Position numbers and translations under genes: made by a program. From positions 1 through 53,542 of IMG/VR virus record IMGVR_UViG_3300010354_000121: a stretch of 53,542 nt of DNA, one strand, 5' to 3'. Origin of the DNA: a virus (Duplodnaviria; Caudoviricetes). The notes below the pieces were generated by a model. That model made no database searches, had not been told where the DNA came from, and saw nothing but the letters and a program-made list of their open reading frames with translations. Shown piece by piece: positions 19,471 through 52,115 of this stretch; the first letter of the stretch is position 1; each line of letters starts with the position of its first letter.

Positions 19471-19923
19471 ATGACTAAAAAATTTAAAGAATTAAATGAT
19501 GCCTTTGATATTGAGGTTAAAAGTGAGGTCATATCCACGGCAATAGAACCCAAAAAAGAAGAGCAAGCCAAAAAAACTGACATCAAACAAGATTATGAGT
19601 ACTCAAGGGCTACTTTGACATCTTTAGTTGATAAGGGCCAAGAGGCAATTGAGGGTATTTTAGAATTGGCCAGAGAAACAGATTCACCTAGGGCCTATGA
19701 GGTGGTTGGTCAACTTATTAAAACAGTGACTGATTCTGCCGAAAAGTTGATGGATATTCAGAAGAAACTTAAAGACCTAGAACAAGAAAAAACGGCCAAT
19801 ACTGTTACGAATAATGCCTTGTTTGTTGGGACCACTAATGAAGTTTTGACTTTATTAAAAAATGAATTGAAATTAAAACCTAATAAAACTATAAATAATA
19901 AGAATACAGAAGATGAAAAATGA
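19471..19923 (+). CDS. gp16: Terminase small subunit gp16
   Basis: DYEYSRATL, SPRAYEVVGQLIK, NNALFVGTT. Confidence 0.9.
   Translation: MTKKFKELNDAFDIEVKSEVISTAIEPKKEEQAKKTDIKQDYEYSRATLTSLVDKGQEAIEGILELARETDSPRAYEVVGQLIKTVTDSAEKLMDIQKKLKDLEQEKTANTVTNNALFVGTTNEVLTLLKNELKLKPNKTINNKNTEDEK
19890..19897 (+). promoter_or_regulatory. T4-type late promoter TATAAATA
   Basis: Exact T4 late consensus 22 nt upstream of the ATG at 19920. Confidence 0.65.
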
Positions 19924-21515
19924 AGAAACTTTCAGAAGACCATAAAGAAATCGCCTCTGGTCAAAAAATGGACGATGAGGGTTACATGGCGAAAGTAGAG
20001 ATGCAAAAAATTGTTCAGTCTCTCAATACATTGAAAAAAGTTATTAAAACTTCTGATCAGCAAATTCCGGCCTGGGTACAAAGTAAAATTACAAAGGCGA
20101 GTGATTATCTGGATATCGCAGCCGATTATCTTTCTTCTGATGTTGAGATGGATGAAGAGTTGGATATGAAAGCCTTTGAAGCAAATTTAAAAAGAGTCGG
20201 AAAAGAGGTTCGGGATACCCTTAAGAAAAGGGAAGAACGGTTAGAAAAAGAAAAATCTTCAAATAAACCACCTCAAAAACCTAAAAGTCCAGAACTTCCA
20301 AGTTTTGTAAAGAAAGAGGAAGTTTCTTTGGTTGATAAAATCCTGGCCGAAATGATGGATGAAAAGCCAGGATGTGATACAAAAAAGCCAAAAAAGCTAA
20401 GTGCAATTGCAAAAAAACATAAAGTCTCCATTGAATCACTTGAAAAGCAATTGCAAAAAGGCATTAAAATTGAAATGGAACACACCAGCGACAAAGGTGA
20501 GGCTGAAACTATTGCTCTTCATCACCTAGACGAAATTCCCGATTATTATTCTAGGCTTCATAAGATGGAAAAGGGTGCCGAGATAAATGAAGAATCAAAA
20601 TCAGGAGATTCTAATTTAAGAGATTGGTTTAAAAAATCTAGTGGAAAAGACCCTAAAACGGGTAAAGAAGTTCCTGGGTGGGTTCAGATTGGTGGTCCTT
20701 ATGCTGGGGCTCCTTGTGCTAGACAGCCTGGACAAAAATCTACCCCAAAATGTGGTAGTTCTAAGATGGCAGCAAATTTATCAGATAAGGAAGAAGAAAA
20801 AGCATTTAATATAAAAAATAGGAAGGATCCAAATCAACCAGAAAAGACGGGTTCGGCAAAACCAACTTATGTAAAAACTGAACTCGAAGAAAAAGAAGGA
20901 AAAAAAGATGCCTGTTATCATAAAGTAAAATCTAGGTATCGAGTATGGCCAAGTGCCTACGGCTCTGGTGCATTGGTTAAATGCCGTAAAGTTGGTGCTG
21001 ATAATTGGGGTAAAACAGTAGACGAGGCAACAACCCGCCTTCCAATGCAGAATGGCCAGCTTCTTAGGGTTCTTATCAATTGGAGAGGCAAGCATCTTTC
21101 GGTTCAGATGTTCTTCCCTCAATTAGGAACTCCTAAAAGAGACGAAATTACTTATGCAGTGAATAAGGTTTATCCAGAGGCCAGAGTAATTAGTTATGTA
21201 CCTTGTGAAATGGATTCAAGCATTCCTATTGTTCAGATGAGAGAGGAGTCTGAAATTAATGAAGACTGGCAAAAAGTTAATAAAAAGGACAGAACTGATG
21301 GGATGAGTCAAAAGGCGGTAGATGCTTATAGAAGGGAAAATCCAGGTTCAGAATTAAAAACGGCAGTAACAGAAAAAAATCCATCAGGGAAAAGAAAACA
21401 AAGAAGAATTGATTACTGTACAAGATCAAAGGGTCAACAAGATATGCATAATATTGATTGCTCTAAGACCCCAGATAAACCAATTTGTAAAGCAAGGCGT
21501 CGTTGGAAGTGTTGA
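19920..21515 (+). CDS. Multi-module Lys/Cys-rich hypothetical protein (includes a DUF5661-like module); candidate internal head polyprotein
   Basis: Short modules (PAWVQSKITKA; GIKIEMEHT...HLDEIPDYY; WPSAYGSGALVKC; CKARRRWKC) separated by Glu-rich linkers. Confidence 0.6.
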   Translation: MKKLSEDHKEIASGQKMDDEGYMAKVEMQKIVQSLNTLKKVIKTSDQQIPAWVQSKITKASDYLDIAADYLSSDVEMDEELDMKAFEANLKRVGKEVRDTLKKREERLEKEKSSNKPPQKPKSPELPSFVKKEEVSLVDKILAEMMDEKPGCDTKKPKKLSAIAKKHKVSIESLEKQLQKGIKIEMEHTSDKGEAETIALHHLDEIPDYYSRLHKMEKGAEINEESKSGDSNLRDWFKKSSGKDPKTGKEVPGWVQIGGPYAGAPCARQPGQKSTPKCGSSKMAANLSDKEEEKAFNIKNRKDPNQPEKTGSAKPTYVKTELEEKEGKKDACYHKVKSRYRVWPSAYGSGALVKCRKVGADNWGKTVDEATTRLPMQNGQLLRVLINWRGKHLSVQMFFPQLGTPKRDEITYAVNKVYPEARVISYVPCEMDSSIPIVQMREESEINEDWQKVNKKDRTDGMSQKAVDAYRRENPGSELKTAVTEKNPSGKRKQRRIDYCTRSKGQQDMHNIDCSKTPDKPICKARRRWKC

Positions 21516-21547
21516 TATTTAAATAGTTATTATGTCTAAATAATAAT

Positions 21548-21614
21548 AAGTCTGTTCAGATGGCACTCTCTACAGACAGAAAAGGCGCTTCTTTATGAGG
21601 CGCCTTTTCTTTTA
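21548..21614 (+). ncRNA. Putative small antisense RNA, copy 1 (upstream of terminase large subunit)
   Basis: CTAAATA at 21536-21542; GTCT...CTCTACAGAC body; terminator at 21578-21614; 21551-21565 is complementary to 21641-21655. Ends are approximate. Confidence 0.6.
21578..21614 (+). terminator. Intrinsic terminator
   Basis: AGAAAAGGCGCTTC-TTTAT-GAGGCGCCTTTTCT followed by a T-run. Confidence 0.8.
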
Positions 21615-21629
21615 TGGAGAATTATTAAT

Positions 21630-21636
21630 CTAAATA
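21630..21636 (+). promoter_or_regulatory. Late promoter for gp17
   Basis: CTAAATA after the terminator and 37 nt before the ATG. Confidence 0.65.
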
Positions 21637-21673
21637 ATAATGCCATCTGAATAGAATAGTAAAAGTAATTATT

Positions 21674-23764
21674 ATGTCTGATACAAATCATTACATGGGA
21701 AATCCGTTATTGAAACGGGCAAATATTCCCAGTGAATTTACACAAGAGCAATTAGTAGAATTAGCAAAATGTGCGGCTGATCCCGTGTATTTTGCTAAAA
21801 ATTATATTAAAATTGTTAACATCGATGATGGCCTTGTATCATTTGATATGTGGCCTTTTCAAGAAAAGATGCTTACTACTTTTCATGAAAATAGATTTAG
21901 TATTTGTAAACTTCCCCGTCAGCCGCTAGAAGATAATACCCCAATCCCGACTCCTAGTGGTTATAAAAAAATTAAAGATCTAAAAATAAATGACATTGTT
22001 TATGATTTATATGGAAAGAAAACAAAAGTCATAAACAAAGTAAGTTATAAAAATACCGAAAAATGTTATAAACTTTCTTTTAAAGGAAAAATATTTGAAG
22101 AAAAAATTTTTTGTGATAAGGATCACTTCTGGAGAGTATATTTTGACAATACTTGCCAAGTATTGACTACAGAGCAAATTTATAATTTAAAAAAAGAAAT
22201 TTTCTTAAAAAGACAATCGTTTAATACATTAGTTGATAATTGGGGCGAAGTAATAAAATTAGTATCAATAGAAGAAATTGAGCCCGTAAATGTTTCGTGT
22301 GTTGAAATAGAAAATAAGGACCATTCTTTTTTATGTGGTAAGAATTTTATACCCACGATGAACTGCGGAAAAAGCACCACGGCGGTATCATTCCTTCTAC
22401 ACTACGCAATTTTCAATGATAATGTCTCTATTGCTATTCTTGCAAACAAGGCATCAACAGCAAAAGATCTACTAGGAAGACTACAAGTATCTTTTGAAAA
22501 CCTTCCTAACTGGATGCAACAAGGTATTAAATCATGGAATAAAACGTCATTAGAACTTGAAAATGGATCAAAAATTATAACCGCATCAACTTCAGCATCT
22601 TCTGTTCGGGGGGGTTCTTATAATGTTATCTTCTTGGACGAATTTGCGTTCGTACCAAATAATGTGGCATTGAATTTTATGAATTCGGTTTATCCCACTA
22701 TTTCTTCTGGTAAAGACTCAAAAGTTATAGTTGTATCAACCCCAAATTCGCTTAATCATTTCTATAAAATGTGGGATGATGCTATAAAAAAAGAAAATGA
22801 TTATGTTCCACTAGAAATTAACTGGAATGACGTTCCTGGAAGAGACGAAGAATGGAGAAAGAAAACTATTGCAAACCTAGGCTCTGAGAAAGCCTTCGAC
22901 CAGGAATTCAACTGTTCTTTCCTCGGATCATCAGACACTTTAATTTCTGGAGCAAAACTCCAAACAATGGTACATAATAAACCAATAAAATCTAAAAAAT
23001 TTCTTGATACTTATGAAGAGCCAATAGAAGAACATCAATACATGATAACCGTTGACGTTGCAAGAGGCGTTGATCTTGACTATTCGGCATTTACTGTTAT
23101 TGACATAACCAAAATGCCTTATAAAATGGTAGCAAAATACCGGGACAACACAATCAAACCGATTATGTTCCCCTATATTGTCAAAGATGTTGGGCTCCAT
23201 TATAATAAGGCCTTTGTTTTATGTGAGACAAATGACGTTGGAGATCAGGTTGCCAATGCCCTTCATTATGACCTCCAATACCCCAATCTACTTACCTGTT
23301 TTATTAAAGGAAGACAGGGGCAAGTTTTAGGTCAGGGTTTTGGTGGAAATCGAGTTGAGTATGGCGTTAAGATGTCTAAAAACGTCAAAAAACTAGGCTC
23401 GATCAACCTAAAAATGTTAATCGAAGAAGATAAACTATTAATCAATGATTACGACACGATTAATGAATTATCGACATTTATTCAAAAATCTAATTCTTTT
23501 ATGGCCGAGGAAGGCAAAAATGATGACCTTGTTGCTTGTTTGATCCTATTTGCCTGGGCCTCAACAAACGAGTACTTCAAAGAAATCACCGATGATGATA
23601 TTAGAAAAAGACTATTCCAAGAAAAACAGGCCAATGAAGAGAACGATATGCTCCCAATTGGGTTCTTAGAAAACGGTCTACAAGAAGAAACATTTGTAGA
23701 AGAAGATAAACTTTGGCATGTTGTTTCTAATGAAGAACTAGCCACCCTTTGGAATTTCTATTAA
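21674..23764 (+). CDS. gp17: Terminase large subunit gp17, intein-containing
   Basis: YMGNPLLKRAN, DPVYFAKNYIKI, Walker A KLPRQ//CGKSTT interrupted by an insert, Walker B IFLDEFAFV, nuclease motifs VDVARG and NDDLV. Confidence 0.95.
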   Translation: MSDTNHYMGNPLLKRANIPSEFTQEQLVELAKCAADPVYFAKNYIKIVNIDDGLVSFDMWPFQEKMLTTFHENRFSICKLPRQPLEDNTPIPTPSGYKKIKDLKINDIVYDLYGKKTKVINKVSYKNTEKCYKLSFKGKIFEEKIFCDKDHFWRVYFDNTCQVLTTEQIYNLKKEIFLKRQSFNTLVDNWGEVIKLVSIEEIEPVNVSCVEIENKDHSFLCGKNFIPTMNCGKSTTAVSFLLHYAIFNDNVSIAILANKASTAKDLLGRLQVSFENLPNWMQQGIKSWNKTSLELENGSKIITASTSASSVRGGSYNVIFLDEFAFVPNNVALNFMNSVYPTISSGKDSKVIVVSTPNSLNHFYKMWDDAIKKENDYVPLEINWNDVPGRDEEWRKKTIANLGSEKAFDQEFNCSFLGSSDTLISGAKLQTMVHNKPIKSKKFLDTYEEPIEEHQYMITVDVARGVDLDYSAFTVIDITKMPYKMVAKYRDNTIKPIMFPYIVKDVGLHYNKAFVLCETNDVGDQVANALHYDLQYPNLLTCFIKGRQGQVLGQGFGGNRVEYGVKMSKNVKKLGSINLKMLIEEDKLLINDYDTINELSTFIQKSNSFMAEEGKNDDLVACLILFAWASTNEYFKEITDDDIRKRLFQEKQANEENDMLPIGFLENGLQEETFVEEDKLWHVVSNEELATLWNFY
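21923..22363 (+). mobile_element. Mini-intein (147 aa, class-3-type) in the gp17 Walker A motif
   Basis: Insert PLEDNTPIPTPSG...DHFW...VSCVEI...FIPTMN followed by Cys; removal restores PRQCGKST; too short to hold a homing endonuclease. Confidence 0.88.
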
Positions 23765-50609: not shown

Positions 50610-51071
50610 ATGGCTAATTATGAATTGAATGGCCAATACATTAAATGGTCCCCGGATCTTATGGTAGAAGTAGAGCTGGAAACCCCAGACTCTTTTCTTC
50701 TTGCAAAAGAGACATTAACCCGCATGGGTGTTGCATCCAAATATAAAAAGGAATTATACCAAACTGCCCACGTACTTTATCGCGGAAATAAATACTATTT
50801 GGTGCATTTTAAATTTATGTTTGTTCTTGATAATCGTAGTGCAACAATTACGGTTAATGATCTAGAGAGGCTTCATGCTATTGCTCACTTACTCGATCAG
50901 TGGGGAATTGTAAAAGTCAAAAATCCGGCCCAAATAGAGGATCGGGCTCCACTAAACCAAATCAAGATTCTTCCGTTCAAAGAGAAACAATCTTGGAATC
51001 TTGTAGAAAAATATAGTATAGGGAATACAAAGAAAAAGAACGACACTACTGATTCTTTGATAACTAAATAA
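50610..51071 (+). CDS. regA: Translational repressor RegA
   Basis: ETLTRMGVAS, LYQTAHVL, YYLVHFK; TATAAATA at 50573-50580. Confidence 0.88.
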   Translation: MANYELNGQYIKWSPDLMVEVELETPDSFLLAKETLTRMGVASKYKKELYQTAHVLYRGNKYYLVHFKFMFVLDNRSATITVNDLERLHAIAHLLDQWGIVKVKNPAQIEDRAPLNQIKILPFKEKQSWNLVEKYSIGNTKKKNDTTDSLITK

Positions 51072-51074
51072 CTA

Positions 51075-51140
51075 CGTCTTTAGGTACGGCAATACTCTAC
51101 AGACAAAGATTAGGTGGCCTTTGGGTCACCTTTTCTTTTA
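51075..51140 (+). ncRNA. Putative small antisense RNA, copy 2 (upstream of HNH endonuclease)
   Basis: CTAAATA at 51064-51070; GTCT...CTCTACAGAC body; terminator at 51112-51140; 51077-51094 is complementary to 51165-51182. Ends are approximate. Confidence 0.6.
51112..51140 (+). terminator. Intrinsic terminator
   Basis: AGGTGGCC-TTTG-GGTCACCT followed by TTTCTTTT. Confidence 0.75.
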
Positions 51141-51188
51141 TAAAATATTATTTTAACTAAATAATATTGCCGTACTTAAAGAATAAAG

Positions 51189-52115
51189 ATGTGTAGACTA
51201 AACGAACGCACCCATAAGCATCATATCATTCCAAGATACATGGGTGGAAGCAATGAGCCAAAAAATCTTGTTAAAGTAACAGTAACTCAACATGCCATGT
51301 TCCACTTCTGTAATTACCAATTATGGGGTAATGAAGAAGATAGAATAGCATGGAGAGCTTTATCTGGTCAGATAACCATGGATGAGATCAAATTAGAAGC
51401 CCAGTCTTTAAATGGCAAAAGAAATAGCCAAAAACAGAAAGAGAATGGAACTGGAATTTTTGGACTAACATTAGAGCAAAGAATTGAAGCTGGCAAAAAA
51501 GGAGGACAAATACATAAAGAAAATGGAACTGGAATTTGTGGACTAACTTATGAACAGAGAAGGGAAATAGGTAAAAGAACAAACCAAAAATGTAAAAAAA
51601 ATGGTACCGCATTTTATGGTATGAGTCCAGAAAAAAGATCGGAAAATGGTAAAAAGGGGGCCGAAGTAAATAGACAAAATGGAACTGGGATTTTCGGACT
51701 GACGCCAGAACAAAAAATAGAACGTAGTAGAAAGTCGGGTCAAAAAACATATGAAGACGGTATTGGAATTCACGGAATGGATCTAGAAGAAAGAGTTGAA
51801 GTCTGCAAAAAAGGAGGAAAAAAAGGCGGAAAAATAGTCTCTTCCCAAAAATGGCAATGCACAGTAACTGGACATGTTTCTAATGCAGGAGGACTTTCTA
51901 GATTTCAAAAAGCTAAGGGGATCGACACATCGAATAGAATAAAAATAGATGGACCTAGAAGTTGGGAAATTACTTTTGAAGATGGTAGAGTTGTTGTTAC
52001 TAATTGTTTATCTACTTGGGCCAAAGAAAACGGCTATAAGTATGTTAATATCCATAGTGTACGGATAGGAAACTCTTCAAATTACCAGGGAATCGTAAAA
52101 GTAGTTCCATTCTAA
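51189..52115 (+). CDS. HNH homing endonuclease with five 26-aa tandem repeats
   Basis: HKHHIIPRYMGGSNEPKNLV...QHAMFH N-terminal HNH motif; NGTGIFGLTxEQR repeats; CTAAATA at 51157-51163. Confidence 0.8.
   Translation: MCRLNERTHKHHIIPRYMGGSNEPKNLVKVTVTQHAMFHFCNYQLWGNEEDRIAWRALSGQITMDEIKLEAQSLNGKRNSQKQKENGTGIFGLTLEQRIEAGKKGGQIHKENGTGICGLTYEQRREIGKRTNQKCKKNGTAFYGMSPEKRSENGKKGAEVNRQNGTGIFGLTPEQKIERSRKSGQKTYEDGIGIHGMDLEERVEVCKKGGKKGGKIVSSQKWQCTVTGHVSNAGGLSRFQKAKGIDTSNRIKIDGPRSWEITFEDGRVVVTNCLSTWAKENGYKYVNIHSVRIGNSSNYQGIVKVVPF

Follow-up and report, generated by a model that had tools for sequence, protein, structure and literature searches.

A probable solo copy of a homing endonuclease regulatory cassette in the leader of the large terminase gene of a T4-like cyanophage

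The IMG/VR record IMGVR_UViG_3300010354_000121 (Duplodnaviria; Caudoviricetes) is a 53.5-kb fragment of a T4-like cyanophage genome, which was analyzed over its full length of 53,542 nucleotides (nt) and is referred to here as the window. The nearest cultured relatives are the Synechococcus phages B3 and B23, with ∼83% identity in the genes flanking the element described below. On the plus strand, the gene gp17 (21674..23764) encodes the large terminase subunit with 696 amino acids (aa), which matches the Pfam families Terminase_6N (8e-25) and Terminase_6C (6e-12). A spacer of 158 nt separates its ATG from the TGA stop codon (21513-21515) of the gene for a 531-aa DUF5661/DUF6321 protein, and this spacer contains the whole of a compact element, here called the cassette, past which gp17 is the first open reading frame (ORF). 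The cassette consists, in this order, of a late-promoter motif (P1), a 5′ hairpin (H1), an intrinsic terminator, a second late-promoter motif (P2), and a short leader with a segment (arm2) that is complementary to the 5′ strand and loop of H1.

All elements listed for the gp17 cassette in a preliminary description of this DNA were recovered at their positions. The motif CTAAATA occurs at 21536..21542 (P1) and at 21630..21636 (P2), on the plus strand like all features of the cassette, and both copies are part of an exact 13-nt duplication TCTAAATAATAAT beginning at 21535 and 21629. H1 (21550..21577; GTCTGT...ACAGAC) was taken from the minimum-energy fold, and its 5′ strand and loop form arm1 (21551-21565). 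Arm1 and arm2 (21641..21655; inverted repeat I1) are 15 nt long each, 75 nt apart and 93% complementary: 14 of the 15 positions are paired, and the sole non-Watson-Crick position is a G in arm1 opposite a T in arm2. The terminator (21578..21613), detected as inverted repeat I2 and in the fold, has a 14-bp stem (21578-21591/21597-21610; 14 nt, 93%) with a 5-nt loop, which is followed by TTTTCTTTT and has the tract UUUUCUUUU, where an RNA of ∼64 nt is predicted to end. A simple terminator scan did not report the hairpin at 21578-21610, which is attributed to an A/U extension of the stem that consumes part of the U tract. P2 is located inside the loop of the arm1:arm2 helix, and with a predicted start at G21642 its transcript would carry arm2, complementary to arm1, as its first 14-15 nt. 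The 18 nt between the end of arm2 and the ATG at 21674 are the remaining gp17 leader (21656..21673), in which a deletion junction was placed by comparison with a related locus, L046, discussed below.

Upstream of the hairpin, a relic of the gp17 5′ junction was found at 21521..21543. It comprises the first copy of a 17-nt direct repeat (D1; 21521-21537 vs. 21663-21679, 88%) and the old gp17 start codon (21532-21534), which now opens a mini-ORF of three codons, ATG TCT AAA TAA (21532-21543), overlapping P1. A search of the whole window against Rfam gave no match at the gathering score; near the element there are only sub-threshold matches, mostly on the terminator, the best with 26.3 bits against a gathering score of 45.

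Late transcripts of T4 begin ∼6 nt past the motif TATAAATA. With this spacing, the P1 RNA is predicted to start near 21548-21550, within 2 nt of the base of H1, and the P2 RNA at the first base of arm2. The motif [AC]TAAATA of the cassettes fits NATAAATA, which has been reported as a late-promoter motif of cyanomyoviruses (PMC2984593). On the plus strand of the window, 14 of 30 [AC]TAAATA motifs end 18-80 nt before the start of a major ORF, vs. 4.7% of positions (p = 2e-11), and the ratio is 12 of 26 after subtraction of the four cassette motifs.

These four motifs include those of an intact sister cassette at 51064..51188 (plus strand; covariance model score 108.9 bits), which is situated between regA and the gene of a 308-aa HNH-type homing endonuclease (51189..52115, plus strand). 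It comprises P1 (51064-51070), H1 (51076-51104), arm1 (51077-51092), the terminator (about 51105-51139), P2 (51157-51163), and arm2 (51167-51182). The protein encoded downstream matches the PHROG family phrog_655, "homing endonuclease" (7.6e-12); its Pfam HNH match is weak and lies below the cut-off. According to the preliminary description, both cassettes are followed by nuclease genes. This is incidental; the true common factor is the association with homing endonucleases. Nor does the "guide" of that description read sequence of the neighboring gene itself, because both arms sit within the cassette.

A pattern scan of viral contigs, in which P1 was not required, yielded 36 loci, of which seven are chance matches in coding DNA. 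The remaining 29 contigs carry 30 cassettes, and the covariance model R1 was built from 30 copies. With R1, two copies were found in the window, six in S-SRM01, three in B3 and three in B23, the latter three being cultured phages, and more diverged second copies in several contigs. After removal of duplicates and six reverse-strand echoes, 45 distinct cassettes were analyzed. The family ranges over freshwater and estuarine T4-like cyanophages (S-SRM01, B3, B23, and IMG/VR relatives), with at least 45 distinct copies. P1 and P2 are present as [AC]TAAATA in 45 of 45 cassettes. P2 is located 4-5 nt ahead of arm2, between the complementary arms, and P1 is preceded by any base and followed by 24 different 5-nt spacers. 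Because it is present throughout with such variable flanks, P1 is judged to be under selection of its own.

Among the 44 cassettes with a leader, 40 precede ORFs resembling homing endonuclease genes, three precede gp17, and one is ended by the contig edge. The three gp17-preceding cassettes (of 43 readable ones) are the window copy, which at 21536-21673 precedes gp17 and not a homing endonuclease gene, and its two variants. The endonuclease-like ORFs encode 178-361 aa where complete and form about seven N-terminal families. PHROG "homing endonuclease" families were matched by all six representative cassette-linked ORFs, Pfam GIY-YIG by three further ones, and NUMOD3 was found in several. Pfam matches on the endonuclease ORFs are generally weak, with no family for four of ten, and the other assignments were made by eye on the basis of shared N-termini. 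In the annotation of S-SRM01, three of the six cassette-linked ORFs are described as "HNH restriction endonuclease" or "NUMOD3 protein".

Two further annotations of S-SRM01 (MW015081) attracted attention. The gene at 62515-63273 is annotated as "translation initiation factor 2", and its N-terminus (FYTYAYLREDRTPYYIGKG) is that of an endonuclease-like family. For the gene at 51291-51992, the annotated start is located inside the cassette, ∼55 nt ahead of the ATG found behind arm2.

The blocks from GTCT to the ATG are 100% identical ahead of unrelated endonuclease families, for example in L006 and L021; therefore, the cassette is a module and not part of any single gene. An identical H1 is shared by nine cassettes with unrelated endonuclease families downstream (L006:1548-1657, L021:3297-3406, L022, L038, L015, L035, L027, L039), and in eight of these nine the P1 flank differs. 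This pattern suggests that the cassette core may undergo gene conversion with an edge at P1.

Marine model cyanophages with published transcriptomes were rejected as members of the family: Syn9, S-PM2, and S-SKS1 gave marginal model matches (E 0.03-0.09) that are not full cassettes on reading, and the covariance model had no match on P-HM2. The Syn9 match precedes a transaldolase-like ORF and has poor arms. In S-PM2 (NC_006820, 136606-136667; L142), a terminator is directly followed by TATAAATA ahead of an ORF downstream of psbA, without arm1, H1, and P1. L142 is thus a simpler form of the cassette layout. The ORF behind it is taken to be the endonuclease F-CphI.

The conservation of the helices was analyzed in a MAFFT alignment of 30 cassettes (A2) and in a model-fitted alignment of 42 cassettes (A5), which also takes in the diverged copies of S-SRM01 and B3. 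For arm1:arm2, 98.9% of 450 cells are paired in A2, vs. 30-48% when slid, and both sides change in 7 of 15 pairs; in A5, 97.3% of the cells are paired, and two-sided changes are seen in 14 of 15 pairs. The terminator helix reaches 99.4% paired cells in A5, with both sides changing in all eight pairs. For H1, to which A5 was not fitted, 90.8% of 239 cells are paired on A5, vs. 17-47% when slid, and five of six pairs change on both sides. It is represented by 34 distinct sequences, with stem types including GTCTGT/ACAGAC, ACCTGA/TCAGGT, TGCTT/AAGCA, and GCTCT/AGAGT, and the base of the stem lies -2 to +2 nt from the predicted P1 start. H1 and arm1:arm2 are mutually exclusive because both use arm1, and the covariation indicates that these rival helices are both maintained by compensatory change. 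In 17 of 30 cassettes, arm1 has a G that forms a G-C pair within H1 but no better than a G-U pair with arm2. Each of the 34 wobble cells in A2 is G-U or U-G, and this on the plus strand only; the structures are therefore formed in plus-strand RNA and not in DNA.

The predicted 64-nt P1 RNA of the gp17 copy folds into H1 and the terminator with -33.6 kcal/mol (z = -7.3), and the minimum-energy fold of the read-through RNA has arm1:arm2 around the terminator (z = -9.5). On the basis of these z-scores and of the covariation of the terminator and of the arms, the latter seen across 42 to 45 homologous cassettes, a chance origin was rejected. The expected specificity of the two window RNAs for their own neighbors is supported by cofolding, with net energies of -14.6 and -15.4 kcal/mol for the cognate vs. 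-0.5 and -1.9 kcal/mol for the crossed pairs. In the nine sources that hold more than one cassette, cognate pairs have a median of -15.4 kcal/mol (n = 24) vs. -1.6 kcal/mol for non-cognate pairs within a genome (n = 54). The best duplex begins with the first nucleotide of the P2 RNA as predicted.

To trace where the gp17 copy came from, the 20 nearest (L040-L059) of 80 gp17 loci were considered, and the gp17 5′ junction was compared in 16 of them; L045, L049, L054, and L058 end short of the gp17 start, and the 60 more distant loci L060-L119 lie outside the survey. Twelve near relatives (L040-L044, L047, L048, L050-L052, L057, L059) have an empty site, which consists of TGA or TAA, about 18 nt, and ATGTCTGA(T/A). 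The uninterrupted junction in L044, the L040 group, and L051 reads TGA, about 18 nt, and ATGTCTGAT, and that of B3 is just TGAtATG. In L046, whose gp17 is 88% identical, ATTATTATGTCT|AAATA is followed by a cassette of the same subtype, a gene for a 281-aa endonuclease (phrog_314), and gp17, so that an endonuclease ORF between cassette and terminase gene, for which a look at related phages had been advised, is present there. The window, L053 (= L055), and L056 share the 5′ junction and the cassette of L046, without the endonuclease. In their leader, ATAGTAA equals what immediately precedes the endonuclease ATG in L046, and the next part, A(A/G)GTAAT(T/C)ATT-ATG, equals the stretch leading into gp17 there. 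From the shared junction and the leader match it follows that the solo cassette corresponds to an L046-like insertion minus roughly L046:287-1163. This bears out the earlier proposal that the cassette was left behind by the deletion of an endonuclease gene upstream of gp17, and by these comparisons the gp17 cassette is a solo relic of such a deletion.

Among the solo variants (window, L053 = L055, and L056), 26 of the 138 cassette columns vary. Of these, 23 are located among the 89 columns outside the promoters and arms, and no substitution is found in the 49 promoter and arm columns. The remaining three variable columns stem from a 3-nt indel in an AATAAT stretch adjacent to P1, which the aligner put into the motif; CTAAATA is intact in all three variants. 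For the sparing of promoters and arms, Fisher's one-sided test gives p = 0.003, and with adjacent columns collapsed to nine events the chance of such sparing is 0.017. L053 has four helix substitutions (two in H1, two in the terminator), all of which turn a Watson-Crick pair into G-U. The arm complementarity, for which decay in relatives lacking an endonuclease had been considered, is retained in these solo variants, which are close to each other with a divergence of about 5%.

The best explanation overall, which we consider probable, sees in the element a solo copy of a portable regulatory cassette that belongs to free-standing homing endonuclease genes within one group of freshwater and estuarine T4-like cyanophages. 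In an intact cassette, the terminator would block transcription entering from upstream. In a transcript reading through, arm1 would fold onto arm2 and render the message translationally silent, by analogy with the logic of T4 I-TevI, segB, and mobE. Transcripts from P2, which lack arm1, would be translated late. P1 and the terminator would furthermore give rise to a stable late RNA of ∼60-65 nt consisting of H1 and the terminator hairpin, the loop of which would pair with the 5′ end of the P2 mRNA, spread down the stem, and damp translation in trans. That a discrete small RNA is made from the gp17 cassette is plausible, since the promoter motif is conserved and the 5′ hairpin and terminator are conserved with covariation. 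For the trans step, in which this RNA pairs with the P2 mRNA, the balance is tipped slightly in favor by the features that a cis-only model leaves unexplained, namely P1, H1, and the terminator between the arms. In the solo copy, gp17 would be cut off from upstream late transcription; its message would come from P2, with the target retained in a leader of 33 nt.

The strongest alternative is a purely cis-acting hairpin, in which the arms only silence read-through transcripts, no functional RNA is made from P1 and H1, and P1 is kept for another reason, for example as a junction or recombination signal. Such a mechanism is documented for T4-family endonucleases (PMC2988022) and has been suggested for cyanophage-like loci whose hairpins have an embedded TATAAATA (PMC2677866), and the minimum-energy read-through fold is indeed arm1:arm2 enclosing the terminator. 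It leaves unexplained, however, why P1 is kept in every cassette with free flanks, why H1 begins no more than 2 nt from the predicted P1 start and is preserved by compensatory change although it rivals the silencing helix, and why the arm1 G in 17 of 30 cassettes favors H1 over arm1:arm2. Moreover, the inter-arm terminator would make transcripts containing both arms rare. A cis-only function is therefore regarded as possible but rather unlikely.

Compatible with the solo-copy explanation is a domesticated regulator, the second option of the preliminary description, in which the cassette would have been retained past the loss of the endonuclease since the P1 RNA and the terminator set the terminase dose. 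The persistence of the solo cassette in four contigs (three variants), with unsubstituted promoters and arms and structure-preserving helix changes, speaks for this, as does the probable reliance of gp17 transcription on P2 or on terminator read-through. Against it, the target occupies positions -33 to -19 relative to the AUG and not the start region, the solo variants have diverged little, and the closest relative, L044 (95% gp17 identity), is without any cassette. Retention for dosage is accordingly considered doubtful, and equally speculative is the full scenario in which the endonucleases carry a same-strand small RNA gene of ∼60 nt and, after the loss at gp17, the kept pair now tunes the terminase as a domesticated brake.

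Least likely among the alternatives that were weighed is a DNA-level element, i.e., an inverted repeat for recombination, a cruciform, or an endonuclease recognition site, comparable to the PeSL shuffling cassettes. The identical GTCT-to-ATG blocks of L006 and L021 indicate that modules recombine, and the PeSLs provide a precedent (PMC4122927). In DNA or on the opposite strand, however, all 34 of the G-U or U-G wobbles seen on the plus strand would turn into A-C mismatches. Moreover, the arms are free to vary in sequence with pairing kept, the reverse-strand model scores are 30-37 bits vs. 110-134 bits, and modular shuffling is compatible with an RNA function, so that this reading is improbable. 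An OMEGA-like guide RNA for the endonuclease was rejected, as unrelated endonuclease families are served and the target is inside the cassette itself.

Several observations weigh against the preferred explanation of a portable regulatory cassette with an RNA product. Everything at the RNA level, from promoter use and start sites to termination and the small RNA itself, is deduced from sequence. The many near-identical cassettes suggest gene conversion, so that the numbers of sequences do not count independent events; alignment A5 is biased towards the model to whose structure it was fitted. The total number of CTAAATA motifs in the window is not above chance (14 vs. 17.7 expected). Arm2 ends 6-11 nt before the ATG in endonuclease copies vs. 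18 nt at gp17, with no clear Shine-Dalgarno sequence nameable, and at gp17 the duplex therefore does not cover the ribosome-binding region. Crossed pairs with -8 kcal/mol or lower make up 6 of 54 pairs within genomes vs. 18.9% of 1874 pairs between sources, a comparison confounded by sampling, so that there is no clear sign of selection for orthogonality. As the solo variants are only ∼5% diverged, their intact arms may partly reflect the short time. Finally, the arms of L015:304-408 are unpaired (net -1.2 kcal/mol; 1 of 44 cassettes) and those of L126 pair weakly (-6.8 kcal/mol). In L015:304-408, P1, H1, the terminator, and P2 are intact and an HNH-type endonuclease gene follows; this cassette may be a recombinant of two cassette types.

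Parts of this layout are known from other systems. For the T4-family endonucleases I-TevI, I-TevII, I-TevIII, segB, and Aeh1 mobE, the text of Edgell, Gibb & Belfort (2010; PMC2988022) describes control by an RNA structure that sequesters the ribosome-binding site and by an embedded late promoter. The cassette shares with these the complementary arms around a late promoter, with long transcripts predicted to be silent and late ones lacking the 5′ arm, the service to endonuclease genes, and a terminator as an extra layer. Unlike the T4-family elements as described there, it holds a full intrinsic terminator in its loop and adds an upstream late promoter and a covarying 5′ hairpin before arm1, which predict a discrete RNA. 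Its 3′ arm furthermore stops 6-11 nt before the AUG and not over a clear Shine-Dalgarno sequence, and a single conserved cassette serves at least six unrelated endonuclease N-terminal families.

For "fractured gene" cyanophage-like metagenomic loci, including ones from the freshwater Lake Gatun, a hairpin was reported in 15 of 16 endonuclease 5′ untranslated regions, 10 of them with an embedded TATAAATA, and two conserved motifs are mutually complementary (Dassa et al., 2009; PMC2677866). At the gp41-7 locus of the same study, the endonuclease is gone and the hairpin is kept before the downstream gene, which makes it the same type of orphan as the gp17 cassette. The main text of the 2009 paper contains no mention of an upstream promoter, a terminator, or a small RNA, and the likeness is one of description and not of compared sequences.

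The c4 antisense RNA of phages P1 and P7 (immI) regulates ant, as stated in the text of PMC8201110. Like c4, the predicted cassette RNA is a short RNA from the same strand, encoded just upstream of its mRNA target, with a specificity determined by covarying complementary bases. Work by Citron and Schuster from 1990 is said to have placed c4 on the same strand upstream of its target, with covarying bases accounting for the P1/P7 specificity. Unlike c4, which is processed from an operon transcript and serves lysogenic immunity, the cassette RNA would be delimited by a late promoter and a terminator of its own and would serve a selfish gene of a lytic phage. Neither in sequence nor by Rfam was the cassette found to be similar to c4. 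In the RNA-OUT/RNA-IN system of IS10, which limits the enzyme of a selfish element, the stable hairpin RNA-OUT uses its loop to pair with the mRNA 5′ end, and the duplex spreads down the stem. The geometry predicted for the cassette is similar, but RNA-OUT is an antisense RNA from the opposite strand and both cassette RNAs would come from the same strand.

The composite promoter-terminator cassettes of T4-like phages termed PeSL (Comeau, Arbiol & Krisch, 2014; PMC4122927) resemble the present family as small conserved modules of promoter and stem-loop that recur between variable genes and are shuffled by recombination. Going by the text of that study, PeSLs differ in having early promoters of the sigma-70 type and assorted genes, whereas the cassette has late motifs ([AC]TAAATA), long-range arms, and a tie to endonucleases. 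In the literature found, which for the 2009 study comprises the text and not the figures and supplements, the only small RNA described in connection with phage homing endonucleases is an antisense RNA of S-PM2, and the S-SRM01 genome paper does not mention the words "promoter" or "terminator". Within this literature, arms with an embedded late promoter are known, and the conserved unit of upstream late promoter, hairpin, and terminator is new.

The surroundings of gp17 revealed some additional features. The gp17 protein of the window contains an insertion of 147 aa (21923-22363, residues 84-230) in the Walker A loop (..LPRQ | PLEDNT...IPTMN | CGKST..), which matches solved mini-inteins, namely those of DnaB helicases (6rix, 2e-9) and the cyanophage-like gp41-1 intein (6riz, 4e-5). 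It begins with Pro (not Cys or Ser) and ends with MN (not HN). The 95% identical gp17 of L044 has no insertion and comprises 550 aa; larger inteins bearing LAGLIDADG are found in the gp17 of L053-L056, and the B3 gene encodes 880 aa. Within the gp17 coding sequence, the small hairpin CCGTT-ATTGA-AACGG is located at 21704-21718 (codons about 11-15). The same site reads CCTCTT-CTC-AAGAGG in L053 and L056, CCTCT-ACTAA-AGAGG in B3, and CGCTCTT-AAA-AAGAGCG in the L040 group; since the peptide PLLKR is constant across these variants, the codon choice co-varies such that the stem is kept. The terminator scan also gave a stem of 16 pairs (TTAGCAAAATG...TATTTTGCTAA) at 21761-21798 inside gp17, ∼90 nt past the start codon, which may be due to chance. 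The gene of the 531-aa DUF5661 and DUF6321 protein (19920-21515) is located between the small (gp16-like, PF11053) and the large terminase genes, and this gene order is common to B3 (gp273) and IMG/VR relatives.

Homing endonucleases are tolerated only if they are nearly silent, and the known solution of T4-like phages is a hairpin acting in cis. To this, the cassette is predicted to add an RNA with its own promoter and terminator and a conserved structure, on which the silencing arm is located. If this RNA exists, the family would offer compact, portable, and naturally diversified pairs of small RNA and leader, with cognate pairs 13-15 kcal/mol stabler than crossed ones. The gp17 site in close relatives records one step in the life cycle of an endonuclease, as it is found empty, invaded, and with the endonuclease lost and its control DNA left behind. 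In this way, an essential late gene may come to rely on the leftover promoter of a selfish element.

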